In this document: piece after piece, positions 16,032 to 64,000 of the stretch | Layout of the letters: the number at the start of each line of letters is the position of its first letter | How positions within the stretch are numbered: position 1 is the first letter of the stretch | NCBI GenBank assembly: GCA_951406725.2 | Contig: OX597832.1 | Location: 67,208,001-67,272,000, forward strand | Source: Octopus vulgaris | Taxonomy: Eukaryota | DNA: 64,000 nucleotides | Direction of reading: 5' to 3' | Translations under genes and position numbers: made by a program | The notes under the pieces: model-generated | What the model saw: the letters and a program-made list of their open reading frames with translations, nothing else | Databases searched by the model: none | Told to the model about the DNA's origin: nothing

Positions 16032-16086
<55 letters not shown>

Positions 16087-16376
16087 ACGGGTTTCTTGCA
16101 GTTTCCTTCTACCAAATCCAATCACAAACCTTTGGTCGGACTGAGGTTATAGTAGAAGACACTTGCCCAAGGTGCCATGCAGTGGGACTGAAACTGGAAC
16201 CATGTGATTCGTAAGCAAGCTACTTACCACACAGCCACTCCTTTTAGAGAAAAACCTCTATTAAACAATTCAATAGAGAAAGACGTTATTCACACCATAT
16301 AGAAAATATATACTATAAAAAAATTATTCTAAATATAAATAAAGTACATAAACAATAAATTGTAAATAGTAGTAAA

Positions 16377-21689: not shown

Positions 21690-22197
21690 TGACAGAGCAA
21701 AAAATTGGTACGACCACAAACCTGAAGGCATTATCGAAAATAGAAATGAAAAGATCCTATGGGATTTTATGACTCAGAGCGACCATGATATAGAGAATAC
21801 GAAGCCGGACATAGTCTTAATTGTCAAAGAAAACAAACTATGCAGGATCATAGATATAGCATGCGCAGCTGACAAGGTATGCGATAAGGAAGAAAGAAAA
21901 GTCGAGAAATATTATAGATTAACTTGAGAAGTTAAACAGTTGTGGTCGATGAAAAAGGCTGCAGTAATACCAATAATTGTTGGTGCCCTGGAAACAGTGA
22001 GCAAAAATCTCGAGAAGTACGCGGAACAAATAGGGGCTGCAATAATGGTGGAGCACTTGCAGAAAACAGCACTGCTTGTAACCGCTCGAATACTCCGGAA
22101 GGTGCTCGAAAAATAAGAGGTATTACCTTAGTTCACTTGTAGTGAACAGCTGACACCGAACTACATCTCCAGCTTTAGAAGCTGTGCAAAGACAATA
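21690..22197 (+). mobile_element. R4/Dong-like non-LTR retrotransposon 3' fragment (restriction-like endonuclease)
   Basis: 'KPDIVLIVKENKLCRIIDIAC..K..KY', 'VIPIIVGALETV', 'LQKTALLVTARILRKVLEK*', then a short UTR and (AAT)n. Confidence 0.85.
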
Positions 22198-22267
<70 letters not shown>

Positions 22268-23234
22268 GTGATGACAACAACATCAATGATGATAATAATA
22301 ATCATAATAATAATAATGATAATAATGGTAAGAAGGAAGAGGAGGACAGCTACTACAACAAGGTCTAGCAATGTTTGTGTGAGGAGGAAGAGGAGATGAG
22401 GAACATGGTATGACAGATAAAACTAATGGTCATACAGATGAAGATGATCACTGTCGATGATAATGATGATGGTGAAGACGACGATGATGACGGCGGCAGC
22501 GGTGAAGATGATGGTTGAAAATGGTGACGTTGATGATGGAAATGGTGGAGCTGCCTTTGGCGGTGACGATGAAATGTTTATTGTGAAGAGCTAATGTTTC
22601 TGGTCATCAATTGATCTAACGAATCAAAGTAAAGTTCAAATATTCGATGTTGTAATAAAAGCATATTACATCAAGATTAGAAAGAAAACAAAAACACGAA
22701 CGTTTTGAGTGAAGCTGTGAAACGGAAGCCTGGCAGCTGAGTTTTGAAGTGGTAGATCATTTGAGATTTCCTGTTAAGTTATTAATGTGTGTAAACCATA
22801 TTTCAGAGGGAATTAATGTTCTGGGCTTGAATTCCAAGACTGAAATTCACAAGGTCTCGATAAAAGAACGAATCAGTTTTTGAGTATTTGATAGGAAGAG
22901 GTCAAAGGGTTATACAAGTTACAATACGATAATGGACTCATATTTTTGGTACTGTAACAAAAGCCATCATCTGAAAACAGTTTTGTTGCTGGGGTATGAA
23001 GAACAAGAATTAATGAGAAACGCGCAACAAGGACACTTTTTTTTAAATATTCAGTGCAGTATGTTCGCGTGTGTCTGTTCGTGGGTGCATGTAGACAAAC
23101 ATGTAAACACATATGTATAGTACACTATGATATAATATGTGTGTGTGCACGCGCGCATTTGTGTGTGTGTGCACGCGCGCATTTGTGTGTGTGTGTGTGT
23201 GTACCTGTTGGTGCGTGTGTGTGTAATAAAGAGA

Positions 23235-30468: not shown

Positions 30469-30628
<160 letters not shown>

Positions 30629-30772
30629 AACTTATAAATAAGGGCAAACGAAAACATTTCTAATGCCAAATATGCCGAAAATTTAACATATTGTCCATTA
30701 CCATATAATGTTTCACAATACGCACGCTACTCGAAAAAAAAAAACAACAGAAATTTCTAAAAAATTCCATTA

Positions 30773-30834
30773 TTACCATATCGGACCGATTTCGGGGTTA
30801 GTTCGTTAAGAACCCTCCCTTCGTCAGTGATAAA
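30773..30834 (-). ncRNA. Type I hammerhead ribozyme
   Basis: ttatca-CTGACGA-aggg..gttc ttaac gaac..cccc-GAAA-tcgg t ccga-TA-tggtaa. Confidence 0.85.
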
Positions 30835-31200
30835 TGTAGCAAAGAAATAAATGAGATACTTACTCATACCCATGGAAGAAGCAAAACACTAAGTCATGAG
30901 CACGATTAAGTACCCCAAATACATCCAAAATAGAAATACACCAGCCCATTCAAGACACGTGCGATGTGAACTGAGGCTCTCACAGAGTGAGAGAGTCCGG
31001 AAGTGAACACTTAAATTTATATTTAATGTAGGATAACATTTTTTTCGAAAAAAATTTTATCAATGGCTAGCATATTAAAAAATACCTTTTTTAGAGTATT
31101 TCTATTCTGGATGTATTTGGGGTACTTAATTGTGCTCATGACTTAGTGTTTTGCTTCTTCCATGGGTATGAGTAAGTATCTCATTTATTTCTTTGCAACA

Positions 31201-31262
31201 TTTATCACTGACGAAGGGAGGGTTCTTAACGAACTAACCCTGAAATCGGTCCGATATGGTAA
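31201..31262 (+). ncRNA. Type I hammerhead ribozyme (canonical core)
   Basis: ttatca-CTGACGA-aggg..gttc ttaac gaac..ccct-GAAA-tcgg t ccga-TA-tggtaa. All three stems pair. Confidence 0.9.
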
Positions 31263-31490
31263 TAATGGAATTTTTTAGAAATTTCTGTCGGTTTTTTTCG
31301 AGTAGCGTGCGTATTGTGAAAAATTATATGGTAATGGAAAATATGTTAAATTTTCGGCATATTTGGCATTAGAAAGTTTTTCGTTTGCCCTTATTTATAA
31401 GTTGTTTAAAATTTTAACCTTTAAATGTATTTTATAATATGCTGGCCATTGATAAAAAATTTTTTCGAAAGAAGTTTTATCGTACATTAA

Positions 31491-31535
<45 letters not shown>

Positions 31536-31574
31536 TATGTGCATGTGTCTCTGTATATCCTTTTATTCTTATGC

Positions 31575-31902
31575 TTGTTTCAATAATTTAACTGCGGCCA
31601 TGCTGGAGTACCACCTTAGTCTTATTCTTTATAAGCCTAGTACTTATTCTATTGGTCTTTTTTGCCGAAAGCTACATTACGGGGACGTAAACACACCAGC
31701 ATCGGTTGACAGGCGATGTTGGGGAACAAACACACACACAAACACACACATATACGACGTGCTTCTTTCAGTTTCCCTCTACCAAATCCACTCACTAGGC
31801 TTTGGTCGGCTCGAGGCCATTGTAAAAGATACTTGCCCAAGTTGTCACGCAATGGGATTGAACCTAGAACCATGTGGCTGTGAAGAAGCTACTTACTACA
31901 CG
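31575..31902 (-). mobile_element. SINE family A
   Basis: Both halves present: 'aagcctagtacttattctat..' and 'cagtttccctctaccaaatccactcac..cttgcccaag'. Confidence 0.8.
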
Positions 31903-35913: not shown

Positions 35914-36002
<89 letters not shown>

Positions 36003-36209
36003 AAGAAGGGTAGTAATAATTGGTTACTACCAGGTGCCCAGCACAAAAGACGAATTGGTCATAAGACAAAATATTATTCAAAAAGAAAAATATTATTCAT
36101 GTAGTAATACAATTAAGGGCTCCTAAATTAGGATGCCGAGTACTGGGAACCAAAAGGGAGATGAATTTATCGAGAGTGAAAATCAAAAACGTTTACCGAT
36201 AATTTACAC

Positions 36210-36284
36210 CTCGGACTGATCAGTTTCTGCCTCATTCTAGCAAAACAAAGAATATGTTTGCTAAGGCTGGCTTCATCAACGAGT
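36210..36284 (-). ncRNA. Type I hammerhead ribozyme (C3U variant)
   Basis: Mirror copy of 36315-36389. Confidence 0.75.
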
Positions 36285-36314
36285 CGCCTAAATTGAGGCG
36301 ACTCAATTTAGGCG

Positions 36315-36389
36315 ACTCGTTGATGAAGCCAACCTTAGCAAACATATTCTGTGTTTTGCTAGAAAGAGGCAGAAACTGATCAGTCCGAG
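36315..36389 (+). ncRNA. Type I hammerhead ribozyme (C3U variant)
   Basis: ctcg-TTGATGA-a-gcc..tagcaaa...tttgcta..ggc-a-GAAA-ctgatcag-TC-cgag. Palindromic stem III. Confidence 0.75.
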
Positions 36390-36491
36390 GTGTAAAGTTA
36401 TCGGTAAACGTTTTTGATTTTCACTCTCGATAAATTCATCTCCCTTTTGTGTTCCCAGTACTCGGCATCCTAATTTAGGAGCCCTTAATTG

Positions 36492-36577
<86 letters not shown>

Positions 36578-36655
36578 TACGTATATATAAATACATATAT
36601 GCATATATATATAAATATATATGCATGTATGTATGTACGAATGCATATGTGTATG

Positions 36656-36756
<101 letters not shown>

Positions 36757-36876
36757 ATATTTCGGAATGGTCATATTGCCAGTTTAGCCAATAAAAACAC
36801 ACGCACTATATATTTGGTGTTATTTTGCTTCAGTGTTATTTATTTTTTACATTAATCTTAATCTTAATCTTATTTC

Positions 36877-36921
36877 GGCCAGAGTTCTTTCGTCACATTC
36901 CTGTGACCGCATCAGTGGTCC
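36877..36921 (-). ncRNA. Hammerhead-like motif (variant core)
   Basis: Mirror copy of 38090-38134. Confidence 0.55.
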
Positions 36922-37678
36922 TTTGTTTTCTTCTTTCTTTTTTGTGTCTCTCCTTACTAACCTTCAGCCATTTTGTATTTCTATTGTATGTTTTCATTTA
37001 CGCATGCTTATATCTCTATGTGCGTCTATGTTTATTTAGCGTGTGTATGTGGGGGATGCCTGTAATATTTGTATCTTCTGTTTATATACGTTCATGTAAT
37101 TTGTATTTTGTTTTTTGTTGTTGTTTTTGTTTATTCTTATTTTGTTCATGTGTTTACATCCACTTATTATCATTACATATGATTGCATGTATGTATGTAT
37201 AACAACGATACTAGTAATAATAATAATAAATCGAATCGAAAAAAACAGTACTGTACTGTATGTAGATTTAGCCCACAAACAAACTGTTAAGCCAGAAATG
37301 TAGTCTATAGTATAAGATGTATAGAGGGACGATGCAGTAACAAGACAACGACATGCGTAGGGGAAACGGCAAGAAGCATAGGAGAGCGGGTAAATGTACA
37401 TTGGTGACAACTCAAGGAAGGTAAAAGCTCATCGATTCTGTACCAACACGCCGAACTGGAACACGGGAGATCAATCAATAACATAGAAATTAAAATATTG
37501 TCCACACATAGAACAGATGCAACAATTAGACAAATTACAGAAGCTACACACATAATAGAAAATAAACCTAGCCTGAATAGAAAACTAGAATGGAGCACTA
37601 GCACACACCACAACATATGACGATAGAGGATCCCGAAAACATAATAAATACACAGATAAATAAACAAATAGAAATAAA

Positions 37679-37747
<69 letters not shown>

Positions 37748-38089
37748 GTATATATATATATTTTTTTCGATTCGATTTCTTATTATTATTACTAGTATTG
37801 TTGTTATACATACATACATACAAGCATATGTAATGATAATAATAAGTGGATGTAAACACATGATCAATATAAGAATAAACGAAAATAACAACAACAAAAA
37901 CAAAATAGAAATTACATGAACGTATATAAACAGAAGATACAAATATTACAGGCATCCCCCCACATACACACACTAAATAAACATAGACGCACATAGAGAT
38001 ATAAGCATGCGCAAATGAAAACATACAATAGAAATACAAAATGGCTGACGGTTAGTAAGGTGACCCGCAAATAACAAAAAGAAAACAAA

Positions 38090-38134
38090 GGACCACTGAT
38101 GCGGTCACAGGAGTGTGACGAAAGAACTCTGGCC
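38090..38134 (+). ncRNA. Hammerhead-like motif (variant core CUGAUGcg)
   Basis: ggacca-CTGATGCG-gtcac aggagt gtgac-GAAA-gaac-TC-tggcc. A9 is altered in both copies and stem III is minimal. Confidence 0.55.
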
Positions 38135-38309
38135 GAAATAAGATTAAGATTAATGTAAAAAATAAATAACACTGAAGCAAAATAACACCAAATATATAGT
38201 GCGTGTGTTTTTATTGGCTAAACTGGCAATATGACAATTCCGCAATATAAAAATATATGTTTCAACACACGACTTCACATAAAAATTCTTGCACAACAAA
38301 TATTTAAAC

Positions 38310-38360
<51 letters not shown>

Positions 38361-38366
<6 letters not shown>

Positions 38367-38606
38367 GTTGTATACCGTCAATCTAACAAGAACGTGACAG
38401 TAGAGGTACACCACCGCTGTATAGCCCTAGGAGGCATCGAACGCCTCCTGATAGCTTTGACACATTTTTTCCCTGTGTCCTTATATACATACACGAAGGG
38501 GAGACAAACACCCCCGGCCGCCGGAACTGCATCTAGGGACACCGTGTTTCAGGATCATTGTCCTTCATCGGCCTAGAGTAGCAGACACCGGTCAGCTGGT
38601 GATATT
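38361..38606 (-). repeat. Partial copy of 364-nt HHR repeat unit
   Basis: Nearly identical to 40461-40706. Begins directly at a (TA)n tract. Confidence 0.95.
38526..38584 (-). ncRNA. Type I hammerhead ribozyme (U4C variant)
   Basis: ctgc..tctagg-CCGATGA-agga caatga tcct-GAAA-cac g gtg-TC-cctaga.gcag. Predicted cut between 38538 and 38537. Confidence 0.8.
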
Positions 38607-38764
38607 ATATCTTTATTATGGGCACGATGGCCCGAATGCAGAGGGGGCATTACAGGACGGGACGTGGGGTACATAAAGTAAAAATAAAATATGAAATGAA
38701 GATAAATTATGTGTAATGATTTAGATGGAACGGCTTACGAACCCCCCAACTCGCAGTTCCGTTG

Positions 38765-38940
38765 AAAATACAATTTTACATTTTACAGTTACATATATTC
38801 CAGTTCAAAATACAATTTTACATTTTATAATTTTACAATTTACAATTTTACATTTTAACATTACATATATTCCAGTTCAAAATACAATTTTACATTTTAT
38901 AATTTACAATGTTACATGTTATAATTTACAATGTTACATA
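38765..38940. repeat. Imperfect tandem repeats of a 'ttttaca'-like 7-mer in the 3' UTR of the ORF1-like element
   Basis: 'aaaatacaattttacattt' occurs three times and 'ttacatatattccagttc' twice. Confidence 0.8.
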
Positions 38941-40221
38941 ATACGTTAAATAAACCTGATCAAACATACTTTTCAATTTAGTAAATGTTCCTTTATCTAC
39001 AACTATCCCTTTCACATCGTCATCATGCAGTTTTGGGTGTAATTTATCCCTAATTAATCCTTTCCTACCTGCAAGTCTTTTTTCCACTTCTGTGTCTTTC
39101 ACGTATAACATGAGTACTTTCAGGTATTTTCCTACAGGTCTTTTTCCCTTCTTACAAGCATCCAACTGTTCTCTCACTTTTTTCTCCATTCTAGGTTTAC
39201 CTCTGTCTTTGTCTGTTCGTCCTTTTCTTTGCACGTTCTCTCTTCTTTTTCTTCTGTTATCTTGCTTTTGATTTTTTTTCTTTTTTACAACTTTCGGTGA
39301 TGATTCCACCCTTGTTCTCTTCCTATCTTCTGTTCTTTCATCCTCTGCACTTGCACGTTCTTCTTCCATATCCTCAATTAGCTGCTCCTCCGTTTGTGCC
39401 TCCACTGCTTTCGTTTCCTCCTGCACTTCTTCCTCCTCCACACACATATCTTTCCACTCCTTCGTTACAGCCTCCGGTGTTATCGTTTTCTCCAGCGGGA
39501 ACACATCCTTCATGTGGCCTCTGAATTTGCAATTATAACAAACTGGAGGTCTTCCCTCTACCACGACTCTAAGCCGTGTCTCATCAGGGAAGACCAACTC
39601 CTCCGGGATGTTGTATAGGTCTGCCACGGTTATATGTGCCAGAACCTGTACCGCATATCCCCACCACTTAACTTCTGTTGACTTTTCCACCTTCACCACC
39701 TCCACACTTTCCTTGCAGTTGAAAACTACTGCCGCTAATATCCTCTCCATGTTAAGTTCAGGCGAAATCCTACTAATTCTTATTCTGACAGCCCTCTTTC
39801 CGCAGTAACTAGGTAATAAAGTCCAACTTTCCGATTTCAGAATTTTTGTCGCATTCTTTCTTGCTTCATTTTCATTTTTAAAGTGTACCACCACTGTGGC
39901 ATATTTCCTTCCTCTGTTGAAAAAGGTAGGTTCACCCTCAATTCCTTGCAGACATTTCTCTATTTCTTCCGTCTCTGCTACTTCTATTTTTCTTGACGCC
40001 ACACACCATGTCCTGTATGTTATCATACGTTTCTCCGCATTGTTTTCTTCTTCTTCGGACGGTGTGACTCTCACGCAGTCACCCCCCTCTTCAAACTGTC
40101 GAAATATTTTTCTAAAGTTTTCTGTTCGACTACCACTTCTTCCATTTCTAGTTCTCTCGCAACCAGGCCTCTGCCTGCTGCTCTCGCATAAGTCTGGTCT
40201 TGCATTTTCAAAAATCTCCAA
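38926..40221 (-). CDS. LINE ORF1/gag-like nucleic-acid-binding protein (RRM-like region, zinc knuckle, acidic then basic tail)
   Basis: The only long non-repetitive ORF (431 codons). 'LRVVVEGRPPVCYNCKFRGHMKDVFP' is CX2CX4HX4(F), and the F codon TTC is one substitution from TGC. 'YATVVVHFKNENEARK' is RRM-like. The track's start is TTG. The likely true start is ATG at 40205 in an overlapping frame. Confidence 0.75.
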   Translation of the reverse strand: MEIFENARPDLCESSRQRPGCERTRNGRSGSRTENFRKIFRQFEEGGDCVRVTPSEEEENNAEKRMITYRTWCVASRKIEVAETEEIEKCLQGIEGEPTFFNRGRKYATVVVHFKNENEARKNATKILKSESWTLLPSYCGKRAVRIRISRISPELNMERILAAVVFNCKESVEVVKVEKSTEVKWWGYAVQVLAHITVADLYNIPEELVFPDETRLRVVVEGRPPVCYNCKFRGHMKDVFPLEKTITPEAVTKEWKDMCVEEEEVQEETKAVEAQTEEQLIEDMEEERASAEDERTEDRKRTRVESSPKVVKKKKNQKQDNRRKRRENVQRKGRTDKDRGKPRMEKKVREQLDACKKGKRPVGKYLKVLMLYVKDTEVEKRLAGRKGLIRDKLHPKLHDDDVKGIVVDKGTFTKLKSMFDQVYLTYYVTL

Positions 40222-40325
40222 ATAAATTTCACCACGTCCTCCAGCAACGAACTCGAACTCACAACCTCTTCACAATGACGCACTCGAAACCAACACACCA
40301 GAATAACGACTCCAAAAAAAAAATA

Positions 40326-40769
40326 GGTCGGCTGGTGATATTTGCCTCGACTTCGTAATTGTATATATGTAAACTCAGTGAAGTCTATTCACTGATTATC
40401 AAAATAAGAAATATTGAATTTCTAAATCTCTCGTAGAGACATGTACGGTGGTGGGGTGATAGAATGGTTGTATACTGTCAATCTAACAAGAACGTGACAG
40501 TAGGAGGTACACCACCGCTGTATAGCCCTAGGAAGCATCGAACGACTCCTGATAGATTTGACACATTTTCCCTGTGTCCTTATATACATATACGAAGGGG
40601 AGACAAACACCCCCCGGCCGCCGGAACTGCATCTAGGGACACTGTGTTTCAGGATCATTGTCCTTCATCGGCCTAGAGTAGCAGACACCGGTCAGCTGGT
40701 GATATTTGCCTCGACTTCCTAATTGTATATATGTAAACTCAGTGAAGTCTATTTACTGATTATCAAAAT
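40326..40769 (-). repeat. 364-nt HHR repeat unit plus 80-nt tandem overlap
   Basis: 40326-40405 recurs at 40690-40769, giving a period of 364. Confidence 0.95.
40626..40684 (-). ncRNA. Type I hammerhead ribozyme (U4C variant)
   Basis: Same as 38526-38584 except stem III cac-a-gtg. Predicted cut between 40638 and 40637. Confidence 0.8.
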
Positions 40770-40771
40770 CA

Positions 40772-40873
40772 GTACCCCCTACTGTCACGTTCTTGTTAGA
40801 TTGACAGTATACAACCCTTCTATCGCCCCACCACCGTACATGTCTCTACGAGAGATTTAGAAATTCAATATTT

Positions 40874-40877
<4 letters not shown>
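40772..40877 (+). repeat. Inverted partial copy of the HHR repeat unit
   Basis: Reverse complement of about 40405-40510. Runs directly into (TA)n. Confidence 0.9.
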
Positions 40878-40943
<66 letters not shown>

Positions 40944-44107: not shown

Positions 44108-44984
44108 ATCTAGACACACATACATATTATTATATGAATATACGTTTATGCATACATACATGCATTGCTGTAACGGAAAGGACTGGAGTATTAAAACTAT
44201 ACGATTCATTCTTACCAACACATAAAGAGACATATTGTATCTTACGAAACGTCTCTTTTTCGGATTGGTTCGATGTGTTACCAACCAAGTACCCTCTCCT
44301 TTTCTTCACACGTATATATTTTTGTCAACTTAAATACGTCCTTTTTTAAAATTTTCCTATCTTAATTTAATTATAGACCTAATAATACGATTAAATTAAT
44401 TTTTGCAAAATGATTTTGAATTTTTCTGTTTCTTTTTTCTTTTTTCCTCTTTTGCTCCTCACAATCTCATGGTTTATAATGTCAAAGCTTTTATTATGTT
44501 GTCATGGAATTTATCTCAACACATAGCTTATCTGTAACATTTCTGACATTCTTCAGCACCAGAATTTGATATGATTAGTAATATCTTTTATTTTCATTTT
44601 AAATTTAATTTTATTAGCTTTCTCCAAAATTTCATTTCGCTAGCTATCTCGAAAATTTTTGAACATTTCCTTCAAAACGTACTGTATTTTGAAGAAGAAT
44701 AACAAACGCGGTAATGACTATACTTAGCAAATAAAATCAATAAAATGGTTCTAATTGATATTAGTACTTGCGTAAAGTGGGTCGCTTCAGTGAAAAGACA
44801 TGAAATTTTGGATCACTGTCAACAGTCAACAAAATAAAAACAAAAGCATATGCTCATTCAAAAGTATGTCCCTCTGTATGTGTGTGTCTTTGCTGTACTA
44901 CTTATGAGTGTGTATATAAGATATGCCGATGATATTGTATTATTAACGAAAAATTATCAAAAATTGCTGATATTATAAAAGAAC

Positions 44985-47779: not shown

Positions 47780-48215
47780 TGTGTGGTCAGTAGCTTGCTA
47801 CCAAGCACTGGCTCTGGCTGGGTTCACTCCCACTGCGTAGTATCTTGGACATGTGTCTTTCATCTATTGCCTCAGTCCGACCAAAGCCTTGTGAGTGGAA
47901 TTGTAGACGGAAACTGCAAGGAGACCGTTGTATGTATATGTGTGTGTTTGTGTGTGTGTATGTGTGTGCGTGCGTGCGCGCGTGCGTGCGTATGTGTGTG
48001 TGTGTGTGTGTTTGTATGTCTATGCTTGCCTCCTCACCATTGCGTGATAGCCGATATTGGTGTGTTTACACCCCCAAAACTTAGCGGTTCCGCAAAAAAC
48101 ACCGATAGAATAAGTACTAGTCTTAGAAAGAATAAATCCTGGGGTCGATGTGTTCGACTAGAGGTGATGCCAGCATGGGCGCAGTCAAATGACTGAAAGA
48201 AATATAAGAATAAAA
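47780..48215 (+). mobile_element. SINE family A, near full length with internal (TG)n
   Basis: Head, internal microsatellite and tail 'gatagaataagtactag..cctggggtcga..gcagtcaaatgactgaaa'. Confidence 0.8.
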
Positions 48216-49329
48216 GAATAACAGTATATACACACATGCGTAGATATGGGTCTGGCCACATATGTCATGTACTAAGTTAAAATAATAAAGGTAAAAGTAA
48301 AACCTCTGAAATGGTAAGATTTGAAAGTAAAAAGGAAGACGGATGTGTATACATTCGTTGACATGATCACATATACAGACGTATACACAGTCACACACAC
48401 ATACCCGATCGTGCTGTCAACGGATAATCATTTAATATAGTCATAAACAACCAAGATGTTCGCAGATAAATGGTATCTGGCTCCCTGTTGCCTAGCAGAT
48501 TTTAGAATCCGTTACGGATGACTGAGCACATTATGGATGGTGGAGGTGGTTTGACAGACACAATCCCACATACACAGGCATTTGTATATATACATAGACG
48601 CACACGTATACATATCACCGTATGAATATGTGTGTGTATGTATGACATCCATTTATCTCTGTTCATCTATATATATCTATAAACACAAAGGGGCCTACAA
48701 GTAAATACCTATCTTCCAGGTGCGTAGGTGCACCATATGGAGTCTATCTAAATATTTACTCTCCCGCTTACGTACCCGTAGAGATACATTTATACGTGCT
48801 TGTACACAGCTGCGTTTCCGCAATAGCATATGTCAGTGACACACACACTCAATCCTATGCTTATATAAATAAACAGACAATAATCACAACGCATATTAAA
48901 TAAAATGGAATTTTAAAGATGTACATACATCTAGAGGAACAGTGCATGATTGCACTTATAACATTCACAGTCACAACATACAACCAGCAACATATAGCAT
49001 ATTATATATATCATACCGTTGTAGGGACTTACCGGTTTTTTATGATTAAGTTGGTATACTTTTTCGTCACTTGAAACTTAATTCAGAGGGACAAAACCAC
49101 ATGTATTCAGGGCAGTGTACAATCAATATCAGTTTTCAATTTACACGGCCCAGCAGGTTATCCTGTGGTTCCACGATAGTCTTGCAGGCTGTATCCACTT
49201 CATTGGGAATGGGGAAGCTTAGATTACCTAACTGTTGCGTTTTCTATAATTAATGTGTAATCTTTATACACTGTTTCTACCGTACTGCGCAAATGTATTC
49301 TTGGTTGTGCAATCACCTCACCAATCTGT

Positions 49330-53618: not shown

Positions 53619-53719
53619 AATAATAATGATGATAAGAAGAAGAAGAATAAGAAGATAAAGAAAAGATGAAAAAGAAGAAGAAGGAGAAGAAAAACAAGAA
53701 GAATGAGGAAGAAAGAAAT

Positions 53720-54007
53720 GTCGATAGGTATGACAAGTTAGCTTGTGAGGTAAAGCATTTGTGGTCGATGAAAAGATGGTAGTGGTACCAATAAATGTCG
53801 GAGCCCTGGGAACAGTGAGTAAAAATCCCGAGAAATATATGAAGTAAAGACTGCAATAAGGATGGAGCACTTGCAGAAAACAGCACTACTTGGAACCGCT
53901 CGAAAACTCTGGAAGGTGCTCGAAAAATAAGATGTGTTACCTTAGTTCACTGATAGTGAACAGCTGACACCGTAGTACATCTCCAGCGTTAGAAGCTGTG
54001 CAAAAGC

Positions 54008-54008
<1 letters not shown>
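53720..54008 (+). mobile_element. R4/Dong-like 3' fragment, same family as 21690-22197
   Basis: 'tggagcacttgcagaaaacagcact..ggaaggtgctcgaaaaataaga..ttaccttagttcact..agaagctgtgcaaa' followed by (AAT)n. Confidence 0.85.
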
Positions 54009-54068
<60 letters not shown>

Positions 54069-54095
54069 TTAATAATAATGATGATGATGATGATG

Positions 54096-54167
<72 letters not shown>

Positions 54168-61581: not shown

Positions 61582-61772
61582 GTAAACGTTAAAAAAAACA
61601 CAAACTGGGACAAGAACGCGAAACATTCTGAAGACGACAAAAAACACACAGACAGGACTTTCGAAGCTCTCAGTCATCAGTCAAGAACCAGATCATCTTC
61701 GCAATCTCGGCCGATTAATACCGAGATTGCTCCAATCTAGGCAGCCCGCCAAGGGAAATCTAAGCCAATATA

Positions 61773-61940
61773 TATATAATATTAATTAGAGACAAAGCCA
61801 CTATTTTGCAAATCAAACAAGGAAAGACTTAATCAATACATAAAAAAATTTTAATATATTAAAATTTTTTTATGTATTGATTAAGTCTTTCCTTGTTTGA
61901 TTTGCAAAATAGTGGTTTTGTCTCTAATTAATATTATATA
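61773..61940. repeat. 168-bp near-perfect spacerless palindrome
   Basis: Centred on 'ttaata|tattaa' at 61856/61857. Confidence 0.95.
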
Positions 61941-62013
61941 ATATTTTACTATAAAATTGGATTCAATCCTAAATCTGATTTTTCCCTGTAAATTTGGATT
62001 TATTCCCTAATAT

Positions 62014-62070
<57 letters not shown>

Positions 62071-62077
62071 ATATATG

Positions 62078-62108
<31 letters not shown>

Positions 62109-62129
62109 GTATATATATATATATGTATG

Positions 62130-62224
<95 letters not shown>

Positions 62225-62226
<2 letters not shown>

Positions 62227-64000
62227 GAAATATGTTACGAAAAGAGAATATAAAATACACGGGGAAATGTAAGATTAAAATATGAAAAATCAACGAAAAT
62301 GCATATTGCAAATAGAAAAAGGCTATTTATGACAGGTAACGACAAATATATACATTTAGATTGACTGAGGTAGTAATACGAGTCATAAAAGTCATTATTA
62401 TGAGATGATTATAAGATGATAATAAAGTAAGAGAACAAAACGAACCAATGGTTTACGCAAAACTATTCATCGTTTGAACAACACCGGTTAATATACGGTG
62501 TGAGGTCTAGTAGTTCCTGAGAAAAAAGATTATTTGTAAGGGAGGTAAGTAGTTCTGGATTTAGAGATGTGAGTGGTGTAGGAAGTGTATAGGGTTTAGT
62601 GGTTTCAATTGAAGAGTTAGTGGTGTTCTGTATTGAGTTGTGTGTTCATATTTAGTTGGGGGAGAAATTTGTTGATGAAAAAATGCCTCTTTATTCAACC
62701 TTTGTTGCATTGTCGTGTTCTGTGAGAATTGGTAAAAGGGAAATATTTGGAAATTGGGATTAAGATTCCTGGCACATCTTTCTATGTGTTGACTCACCTT
62801 TAACTGTCTGTATTGTGGGTGACGGATTTGCTCTTTGTGAATGGTGATTCTTTGACGGAGCGAAATTCCTGTTTGTCCAATATAGAGTTTACCACATCCT
62901 ATGCATATTTCTCCTTGTTTGAATTGGAATTCTGAACCCTCCAGAAGGTGGGGGCATGTTCCACAGTTAGAACGTCCACATTTTGTCACTTTTGGCTCAG
63001 TTGTTAGTGGGTAAAGTCTAGCGCTGGTTAATATTCTTTTCAGTGACTTCGGTTGCTTTTTGCTTTTTATAATTTTATATGAGCTTAAAATTTCGTTCAT
63101 TGTTTTGTCTGCTGTGAGGATGGGAAGGTTTTGGGTAATAATGTTGAAGGCTTCGTTGTTTCTGGGGTTATGTGTGAAGATGTATGGGAGTATTTTTAAG
63201 TCTTGTTTAGTATTTCGGCTAGTTTTCCTTAATCTTTTTATATCTATTTCCTTAGCTCTTTTGATGCCTTCATTTACTAATGAGATTGGGTAATGTCTTT
63301 TAGTTAGTGGAGATCTAAGTTCAAGGAGTCTATGTTCTCGAGTGTATGTATCGGAAATTATGATGCAGATTCTTTTTGCTAGGTTAAAGGGTATGTTGAA
63401 TTTTATGTTTTTGGGGTGGCAGGAGTTAAATAATAGTTATTGTTTAGAATCTGTGGGTTTATAAAAGATGTATGTTTCTATGTGGTTGTTAACTATTCTA
63501 ATATGTCTACAAAGGGAGTTGTTTACTGTTGCGTTCCATAGTGAATTGTATATTGCTGTGTATATTGTTGAGCATTCTTTTGAAATCAACGAGTTGATCC
63601 ATGCTATCTTGCCAAAGTATGGAGCAATCATATAAATATCTCTTCCTGCTCTCCTTTAAGTACCAATTGAAAGAGGCGCCATATTTTTCTAGTGATGATT
63701 GGTATAACTTAAGTTCGTGGTAACCCATTACGAGGTTTGCAATCACTGGAGCAGCTCTGGTCCCCATTGCAATTCCGCATTTCTGTCGATAGTAAGTAGT
63801 ATCGAACACGAAATGATTGTTCAACAGGACGAATTTCAGTGCTTCAATTATAAAATTGTGGTTAATTCGTTCTGGGATCTCTTCTGGGTATTTTTCTAGC
63901 CAAAATGTGATTGCTTCTATACCGGAGTCGTATGGGATATTAGCGTATAGATTCACCACATCGAAAGATACCAGTAGAGTTCCGTCCTATACTGTCTTCG
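62225..64000 (-). mobile_element. Neptune-like Penelope-like element (RT + GIY-YIG), disrupted, continues beyond window
   Basis: RT: 'LVSFDVVNLYANIP', 'YYRQKCGIAMGTRAAPVIANLVMG', 'RYLYD' (YLDD decayed), 'IFYKPTDSKQ*..SCHP'. Endonuclease: 'KCGRSNCGTC..CIGCGKLYIGQT..RQRITIH..VSQHI'. The 3' end joins (TA)n at about 62223. Confidence 0.9.

Follow-up and report, generated by a model that had tools for sequence, protein, structure and literature searches.

Non-autonomous long interspersed nuclear elements (LINEs) that carry open reading frame 1 (ORF1) alone are described from three clades, L1 (HAL1), Jockey (HeT-A) and CR1 (Ag-Sponge) (PMC5786205), and HAL1 is characterized as a non-autonomous LINE derivative encoding only the ORF1 protein (ORF1p) (PMC5753468, PMC3627910). 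We report an insert of comparable design in a 64,000-nucleotide (nt) stretch of the Octopus vulgaris genome (assembly GCA_951406725.2, contig OX597832.1, positions 67,208,001 to 67,272,000 of the forward strand), hereafter the window. The insert occupies 1719 bp on the minus strand (38607-40325) and interrupts one unit of a 364-bp tandem host repeat. An earlier note, made from the sequence alone, had proposed a HAL1-like element in a mollusc that keeps its RNA-binding protein. The mollusc source agrees with the nearest named relative of the protein, from Octopus bimaculoides, and the ORF1-only design is indeed that of HAL1, although the ORF1p is not of the mammalian L1 type. With about as much confidence as doubt, we read the insert as a decayed copy of a Tx1-like, ORF1-only, non-autonomous LINE family that was moved in trans by a partner LINE.

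HAL1 and the insert are alike in encoding ORF1p and no ORF2p. The parent of HAL1 is mammalian L1, whose ORF1p is a Transposase_22 protein with a coiled coil, one RNA recognition motif (RRM) and a C-terminal domain, whereas that of the insert combines a zinc knuckle with two predicted RRMs. HAL1 families are multicopy with their coding capacity kept, in contrast to one copy in the window with a broken ORF1. Like L1, HAL1 ends in a 3' poly(A) tail, and the insert differs from both in having none. Because its ORF1p is of another type and poly(A) is absent, the insert resembles HAL1 in design only and is not a HAL1.

Further parallels come from HeT-A and Ag-Sponge, invertebrate ORF1-only elements that are thought to use an autonomous partner (PMC5786205), as we propose for the insert. 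The insert differs from them in its parent clade, which is probably Tx1-like, and in its mollusc host, and an association with telomeres was not seen in the window. Tx1-clade LINEs likewise enter other mobile elements, as exemplified by Xenopus Tx1 in Tx1D and by the crocodilian Tx1-Mar, Tx1-9_AMi and SINEU-3, the last with a 16-bp target duplication in Mariner-N4_AMi that compares with 17 bp in the host repeat here (PMC4494074). These transposon-targeting cases are autonomous elements or short interspersed nuclear elements (SINEs), unlike the insert, and the targets given in the excerpted parts of the same paper are DNA transposons, long terminal repeat (LTR) elements, small nuclear RNA genes and microsatellites, with no hammerhead-bearing or Penelope-like target among them (PMC4494074). 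Tx1-type elements have an ORF1 with RRM and CCHC motifs, which is consistent with that of the insert (PMC5203782). L1-Tx1 elements are widespread in molluscs (PMC10294476), and the literature searched, including 12 of the 33 supplement files of that paper, yielded no report of an ORF1-only LINE in a mollusc, although one may be catalogued in Repbase or Dfam.

The target-site duplication and the ends of the insert

The following features delimit the insert and its target:

38607..40325, minus strand: ORF1-only insert, 1719 bp
38590..38606, unstranded: target-site duplication on the element 3' side, identical to the empty site
40326..40342, unstranded: target-site duplication on the element 5' side, differing at one base from both the other copy and the empty site
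40690..40706, unstranded: empty target site, a lone 17-mer in the uninterrupted neighbouring host unit
40314..40325, minus strand: TA then T10, opening the insert on its 5' side; a native end, bases added without a template or an inverted poly(A)
40206..40325, minus strand: 5' leader, 120 nt, G/T-rich, no ATG
38769..38940, minus strand: AT-rich, TGTAA-rich tandem repeats, 72 bp x 2.4 and 15 bp x 8.9
38607..38680, minus strand: predicted terminal stem-loop, the last 74 nt of the insert

The near-identical 17-mers that the earlier note had seen on both sides of a 1719-bp insert agree at 16 of 17 bases. Across both strands of the whole window, only three sites lie within three mismatches of the 17-mer, and the third is the lone copy at 40690-40706. 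The sequence around it accounts for both flanks of the insert: 38361-38606 (246 bp) recurs at 40461-40706 with 96% identity, and 40326-40408 (83 bp) recurs at 40690-40772 with 95% identity. Deleting the insert together with one 17-mer yields a unit that is colinear with the empty host unit. Given that this neighbouring, uninterrupted host unit represents the empty site with a single 17-mer, the flanking 17-mers are a true target-site duplication, and the earlier proposal of a 17-bp duplication is thereby borne out. A lone 16/17 pair, had there been no empty site, would have been weak to modest evidence; at spacings of 1.5-2 kb the window contains seven such pairs at three loci, against a mean of 1.0 in five shuffles. 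The other complex direct-repeat pair at a spacing of about 2 kb is explained by a dispersed SINE-like repeat (45894, 47780-48239, 16040-16237, 31541-31901 and 618-767), the copies of which are 70-80% identical.

Read along the minus strand, the insert consists of TA, T10, the rest of the leader, ORF1, TGTAA-rich tandem repeats, about 160 nt, AATAAA and five final bases. The T10 tract (40323-40314) lies just inside the 5' duplication, from which it is separated by the TA. The leader is as short as had been noted, reaching the first ATG (40205) after 120 nt, and it lacks a stable fold (z-score about +0.9 for both 5' stretches folded). A total of 320 nt lie between ORF1 and the insert's 3' end, of which the first ~170 nt are tandem repeats that begin at the ORF1 stop codon; this is the repetitive 3' untranslated region (UTR) of the earlier note. 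We found no tRNA head.

Both the terminal hairpin and the polyadenylation signal claimed previously are present. The hairpin has a predicted free energy of -16.9 kcal/mol (z-score -3.2, equalled by 0 of 200 shuffles), but an internal window folds better (see below), so it is no more than suggestive. AATAAA at 38617-38612 (nt 1709) is the sole sense-strand copy in 1719 nt and stands 5 nt before the end; by simple arithmetic, the chance that a single AATAAA falls within the last 30 nt is about 2%. The 3' end of the insert thus looks like a genuine RNA end. The ends are nevertheless the least secure part of the case, with poly(A) missing at the 3' end and a T10 tract at the 5' end. The left junction (38601-38611) reads GATAT-T-ATATC, a 5-bp inverted repeat. 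Possibly the final 5 nt were templated by the target; the element proper would then end at AATAAA.

The ORF1 protein and the absence of ORF2

The coding part of the insert comprises the following features:

40071..40205, minus strand: ORF1 N-terminus, 44 codons then a stop, out of frame with the body
40082..40087, minus strand: G6 run at or next to the frameshift; mutation or assembly error
38926..40080, minus strand: ORF1 body, 384 codons and stop
39499..39501, minus strand: position of the fourth zinc-knuckle ligand, Phe; Cys in 27 of 32 relatives' knuckles

A full-library search found 354 relatives of the protein at E<=0.001, of which 150 are listed. The nearest named relative, P0001, is an uncharacterised O. 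bimaculoides protein with 58% identity over 122 amino acids (aa), which a quick tree of 64 rows (63 of the 150 relatives taken in) places as the sister of the insert ORF1 with a Shimodaira-Hasegawa-like approximate likelihood ratio (SH-aLRT) support of 93. The search for prokaryotic relatives in bacterial and archaeal genomes gave 63 pattern matches and 0 confirmed relatives.

The longest ATG-started frame of the insert encodes 366 aa (40026-38926). Upstream of it, the peptide that starts at the ATG at 40205 matches the N-termini of relatives (phmmer among the 150, P0009 with E 5e-6 and P0122 with E 1e-3), and the two frames, when bridged by an X, align with relatives from the first residues on. 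Of 12 relatives chosen from the 17 of 150 that bear the N-terminal motif, 11 scored higher with this bridged read-through. We rejected an in-frame extension further upstream (40269-40081) as the N-terminus because it lacks a convincing match among the relatives (best E 0.012), whereas the out-of-frame peptide has one. ORF1 thus spans the N and C ends of its relatives. It stops 11 residues after the last conserved motif, at the same point as the O. bimaculoides relative, which argues that ORF1 was not cut in this copy alone. The frameshift may reflect slippage or a long-read assembly error, the latter because the indels that separate the host units (see below) are also changes in run length.

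For the window protein on its own, Pfam gave just a CDC45 match of compositional origin and a zinc knuckle below threshold, and a sequence search of the PDB gave no match. With 80 aligned sequences, AlphaFold2 produced a model of mean predicted local distance difference test (pLDDT) 78.6, at about 90 or more across the first 180 residues; the single-sequence model (pLDDT 38.6) was unusable. Foldseek matched the aligned model to tandem-RRM proteins (best E 8.8e-5), and VIA-align fitted each half to RRM or ferredoxin-like folds, the best being a La RRM (Z 9.1, root-mean-square deviation 2.6, 83 aligned residues). The predicted order is RRM1, RRM2, one zinc knuckle, a charged helix, a disordered linker and a small C-terminal alpha/beta domain. 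The knuckle family zf-CCHC is found in 26 of the 80 aligned members, and Atlas features resemble those of mollusc CCHC proteins and ZCCHC3-like RNA-binding domains (0.90-0.92). Transposase_22 was not matched by the window protein at E<=1 and is not among the 25 of 65 families that are listed for the 80 aligned members. Collectively, the predicted fold and these profiles identify a LINE ORF1 protein of type I, with two RRMs and a zinc knuckle, that is predicted to bind RNA. The earlier proposal that an RNA-binding protein is kept therefore stands as to the type of protein and is weakened as to its being kept; the protein is conserved across its relatives, but in this copy it is not intact, given the frameshift and a Phe at the fourth knuckle ligand.

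Type I ORF1 proteins with RRM and CCHC motifs outside mammals fit the Tx1 clade and also occur in Jockey-group elements (PMC5203782). The sequence features of the insert make its origin probably Tx1-like. The excerpted parts of PMC10351740 contain no statement on the origin of ZCCHC3.

Two further observations concern the protein family. The C-terminal domain of about 70 aa (38929-39170, minus strand), predicted to be alpha/beta, is common to at least five relatives, P0001, P0038, P0065, P0120 and P0003; it has no Pfam family, and its Atlas scores are below 0.9 with low recognition. In P0020, P0086 and P0113, predicted gene models of the WD40, LDL-receptor-repeat and astacin kinds have pieces of this ORF1 spliced into them, and these fusions are probably annotation chimeras.

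The absence of ORF2 implied in the earlier note was also supported. None of the five minus-strand, stop-free stretches of at least 20 codons that lie 3' of the ORF matched an endonuclease or reverse transcriptase (RT) family even at E<=10. Since pieces of ORF2 would presumably remain after a random deletion, the lack of any remnant speaks for an ORF1-only unit. Fused ORF1-ORF2 proteins numbered 0 among 7999 candidates, which is weak evidence, and an endonuclease or RT domain is listed for 0 of the 33 relatives scanned (all 19 of at least 300 aa included; for P0020, among 5 of its 18 families). This domain scan counts for little, as ORF1 and ORF2 lie in different frames and RT genes are often removed from gene sets. 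Within the 64-kb window, blastn found no second copy of the insert, and tblastn with the 150 relatives found no other ORF1 match, five matches outside the insert coming from the repeat-derived part of one chimeric protein. An autonomous LINE with the ORF1 of the insert was likewise not found in the window, where a crude motif scan gave one isolated YADD at 44922.

The host repeat

The repeat into which the insert was placed has the following parts:

38361..38606, minus strand: interrupted unit, part 3' of the insert, ending at (TA)23
40343..40771, minus strand: what is left of the interrupted unit, then its uninterrupted 364-bp neighbour
40772..40878, plus strand: inverted 107-bp copy of the end of the host repeat, 97% identical to 40404-40510, abutting (TA)n
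38532..38577, minus strand: type I hammerhead-like motif of the interrupted unit, core CCGATGA, not CTGATGA
40632..40677, minus strand: second hammerhead-like motif, in the uninterrupted unit, 2100 nt from the first

The host repeat is a partial tandem that is flanked on either side by (TA)n and carries an inverted, truncated copy at one of its ends. Each 364-bp unit bears one hammerhead-like motif with a helix I of 6 bp, a helix II of 4 bp and a short palindromic helix III. A descriptor scan for hammerheads made three matches in the window and 0 in each of ten shuffles, and an Rfam search of the window detected no hammerheads. We describe the motifs as hammerhead-like and any self-cleavage as putative, given the lack of an Rfam match and a C in place of the usual U at the second core position. 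The insert lies 12 nt upstream of one motif on the same strand, between two predicted cleavage sites that are 2100 nt apart. The units differ by seven substitutions in 246 bp and two in 63 bp, and also by three indels (38403, 38465-38470 and 38511-38515, compared with 40504-40615) that read G/GG, T6/T4 and C5/C6.

Penelope-like elements form partial tandems with an inverted truncated copy, carry hammerheads in their repeats and target microsatellites (PMC8557442, PMC4209133, PMC11167929), and tandem hammerhead repeats without an ORF are described as retrozymes, non-autonomous derivatives of Penelope (preprint 10.64898/2026.07.22.740005). The host repeat is like the Penelope-like pseudo-LTR and the non-LTR retrozyme in having tandem units that each contain a type I hammerhead-like motif (PMC4209133), and like Penelope-like elements in its inverted truncated copy and microsatellite flanks (PMC8557442). 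It differs from these elements in its CCGATGA core, the lack of an Rfam match and the lack of a linked parent Penelope ORF. The Naiad supplement of PMC8557442 did not contain four short motifs taken from the host repeat, and there was no significant DNA match between the host repeat and the Penelope remnant at 61600-64000. From these sequence features, we regard the host as a hammerhead-bearing, Penelope-like or retrozyme-like repeat within (TA)n.

Several other repeats in the window resemble the host or adjoin it. An unrelated hammerhead-like motif on the plus strand (31202-31262, core CTGACGA) sits in a 316-bp inverted repeat of 96% identity (30624-30939 / 31096-31408) next to (TA)n, a region that appears to be another Penelope-like fragment. 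To the left of the host, a near-perfect hairpin (36305 near the centre of 35914-36695) and a 608-bp inverted repeat of 89% identity (36654-37245 / 37761-38361) that reaches the left (TA)n are likely further Penelope-type inverted insertions stacked in microsatellites, and 38096-38131 looks by eye like a degenerate hammerhead that failed the descriptor scan. A Penelope-like ORF remnant (62564-63986, minus strand) has an RVT_1 match of E 0.017 and a GIY-YIG match of E 0.0009, both under the Pfam cut-offs, and is followed by a palindrome at 61767-61945. Two copies of 84% identity (21884-22334 and 53703-54147) end in (TAA)n, and they look like the 3' end of a restriction-endonuclease-type LINE.

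Origin of the insert

The earlier note had overlooked the frameshift, the missing 3' poly(A), the TA and T10 at the 5' end and the hammerhead-bearing target repeat. Our even confidence in a self-propagating family stems from the rarity with which a random deletion would remove all of ORF2 and leave ORF1 and the 3' UTR whole. Under such a scheme, a master copy, which we infer along with further copies, would be transcribed as an RNA of about 1.7 kb, and its ORF1p, a protein of two predicted RRMs plus a zinc knuckle, would coat its own RNA in cis. The ORF2p of an autonomous relative would then recognise the 3' end, perhaps via the stem-loop, and nick the plus strand just past 38606, where the 17-mer has its T-rich end (TATT/T). 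The insertion would be completed by reverse transcription together with another nick at a distance of 17 bp. Afterwards, this copy would have acquired the frameshift (possibly an assembly error), the knuckle substitution and one change in the duplication. Partner LINEs are plausible, since 13 L1-Tx1 families, with 421 insertions, have been active recently in O. vulgaris (PMC13282606). Stringent LINEs bear 3' stem-loops (PMC3747384).

A number of observations weigh against this family. A single copy is known, within a 64-kb window, and its ORF1 is broken twice, by the frameshift and by the knuckle substitution. Five more distant relatives extend 30-41 residues past the last motif, compared with 11 here. 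The terminal hairpin ranks second among 29 windows along the insert, behind an internal ORF window with a z-score of -3.8. Fixing the clade would require an RT, which the insert lacks, and ORF1s with RRM and CCHC motifs are also found in the Jockey group (PMC5203782). Finally, the insert stops 5 nt past AATAAA, directly at the duplication, with no 3' poly(A), and its 5' T10 looks like the inverted poly(A) found in one-off L1 insertions made by twin priming; together, these two features leave room for a one-off origin.

Such a one-off origin, the main rival, which we consider doubtful yet deserving of serious attention, would involve a shortened transcript of an autonomous LINE, its RNA ending at AATAAA in a 320-nt spacer before ORF2. 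The copy was perhaps twin-primed, in a process that may have inverted everything but the poly(A), which would then be visible as the 5' T10; this accounts jointly for the absent 3' poly(A) and for a T tract inside the 5' duplication. Premature polyadenylation is known for AT-rich LINEs (PMC7140322). The poly(T)-headed L1 insertions of Meyer et al. (2010; PMC2837659) share with the insert a T tract at the 5' duplication, a sense LINE piece and, often, the lack of poly(A). They comprise 39 primate loci with duplications of 7-20 bp, a range that includes the 17 bp seen here; two derive from the L1 5' part, and 26 of the remaining 37 end before the poly(A) tail (PMC2837659), which also counts against a self-propagating family. 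The insert is nevertheless unlike them in containing the start of ORF1 and in stopping at a polyadenylation signal. Its tract is also shorter, at 10 nt compared with 14-39 nt, and is offset from the duplication by TA (PMC2837659). Further, the endonuclease motif of the primate loci lies on the poly(T) side (PMC2837659), whereas here the endonuclease-like site is on the opposite side: the T-tract side deviates from TTTT/A at five of five positions and the element's 3' junction, where the T-rich primer end is located, at only two of five. This favours ordinary priming at the 3' end of the insert, provided that the partner endonuclease was L1-like. A Tx1 partner need not have such an endonuclease, which also weakens the case for a family moved in trans, and twin priming therefore keeps weight. 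As to the spacer, the TGTAA-rich array after ORF1 and the terminal hairpin are more like a 3' UTR, as LINE anatomy goes, than like a spacer between frames.

We find it rather unlikely that a single internal deletion or template jump lost ORF2 and fused ORF1 to its own 3' UTR. That both ends look native, that the duplication is intact and that one copy is known would all fit such an event, and tandem repeats starting at the stop codon could favour a jump. The breaks, however, would have to fall at or just past the ORF1 stop and inside the 3' UTR without sparing a single base of ORF2, and the end of ORF1 coincides with that of the O. bimaculoides relative.

Improbable in our view is a processed retrocopy whose parent gene in the host arose by domestication of a LINE ORF1, for which mammalian L1TD1 would be the precedent. 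An intronless ORF with short UTRs, an AATAAA near the end and a target duplication would suit a retrocopy, as would language-model features like those of ZCCHC3-like host proteins (score 0.90). The relatives, however, are numerous, diverge fast and are for the most part short pieces (105 of 151 below 200 aa, and 120 of 150 below 40% identity), three of them are spliced into unrelated gene models as expected of interspersed repeats, and the insert lacks a poly(A) tail.

A long shot of similar standing builds on the host repeat. It posits a Tx1-derived, ORF1-only octopus family that targets one 17-bp site in hammerhead-bearing Penelope or retrozyme repeats, on the strand of the ribozyme and 12 nt upstream of it, with the flanking hammerheads freeing an RNA of 2100 nt that contains the entire element. 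Were this so, a LINE would supply the ORF2p, and the retrozyme the transcription, the RNA ends and perhaps the mobility; the element would be a double parasite for which a poly(A) tail is unnecessary.

Least credible is that the 17-mers arose from a rearranged Penelope-like tandem repeat or a misassembly with no insertion at all: the region is rich in tandem and inverted repeats and microsatellites, structures that trouble assemblies (PMC8557442), but removing the insert and one 17-mer leaves a unit colinear with the empty one, and the substitutions between the host units mean that they are not one sequence assembled twice.

Whichever origin applies, the neighbouring empty site makes this an unusually clean record of an insertion. 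As a one-off, the insert would be an ordinary broken copy of a retrotransposon. Elements without an RT would escape surveys that extract RT-containing ORFs (PMC10294476). If a Tx1-like ORF1-only family does exist in molluscs, it would represent a fourth independent origin of this design, with a different ORF1p architecture, and would support the idea that ORF1p is required in cis and that ORF2p can be borrowed.

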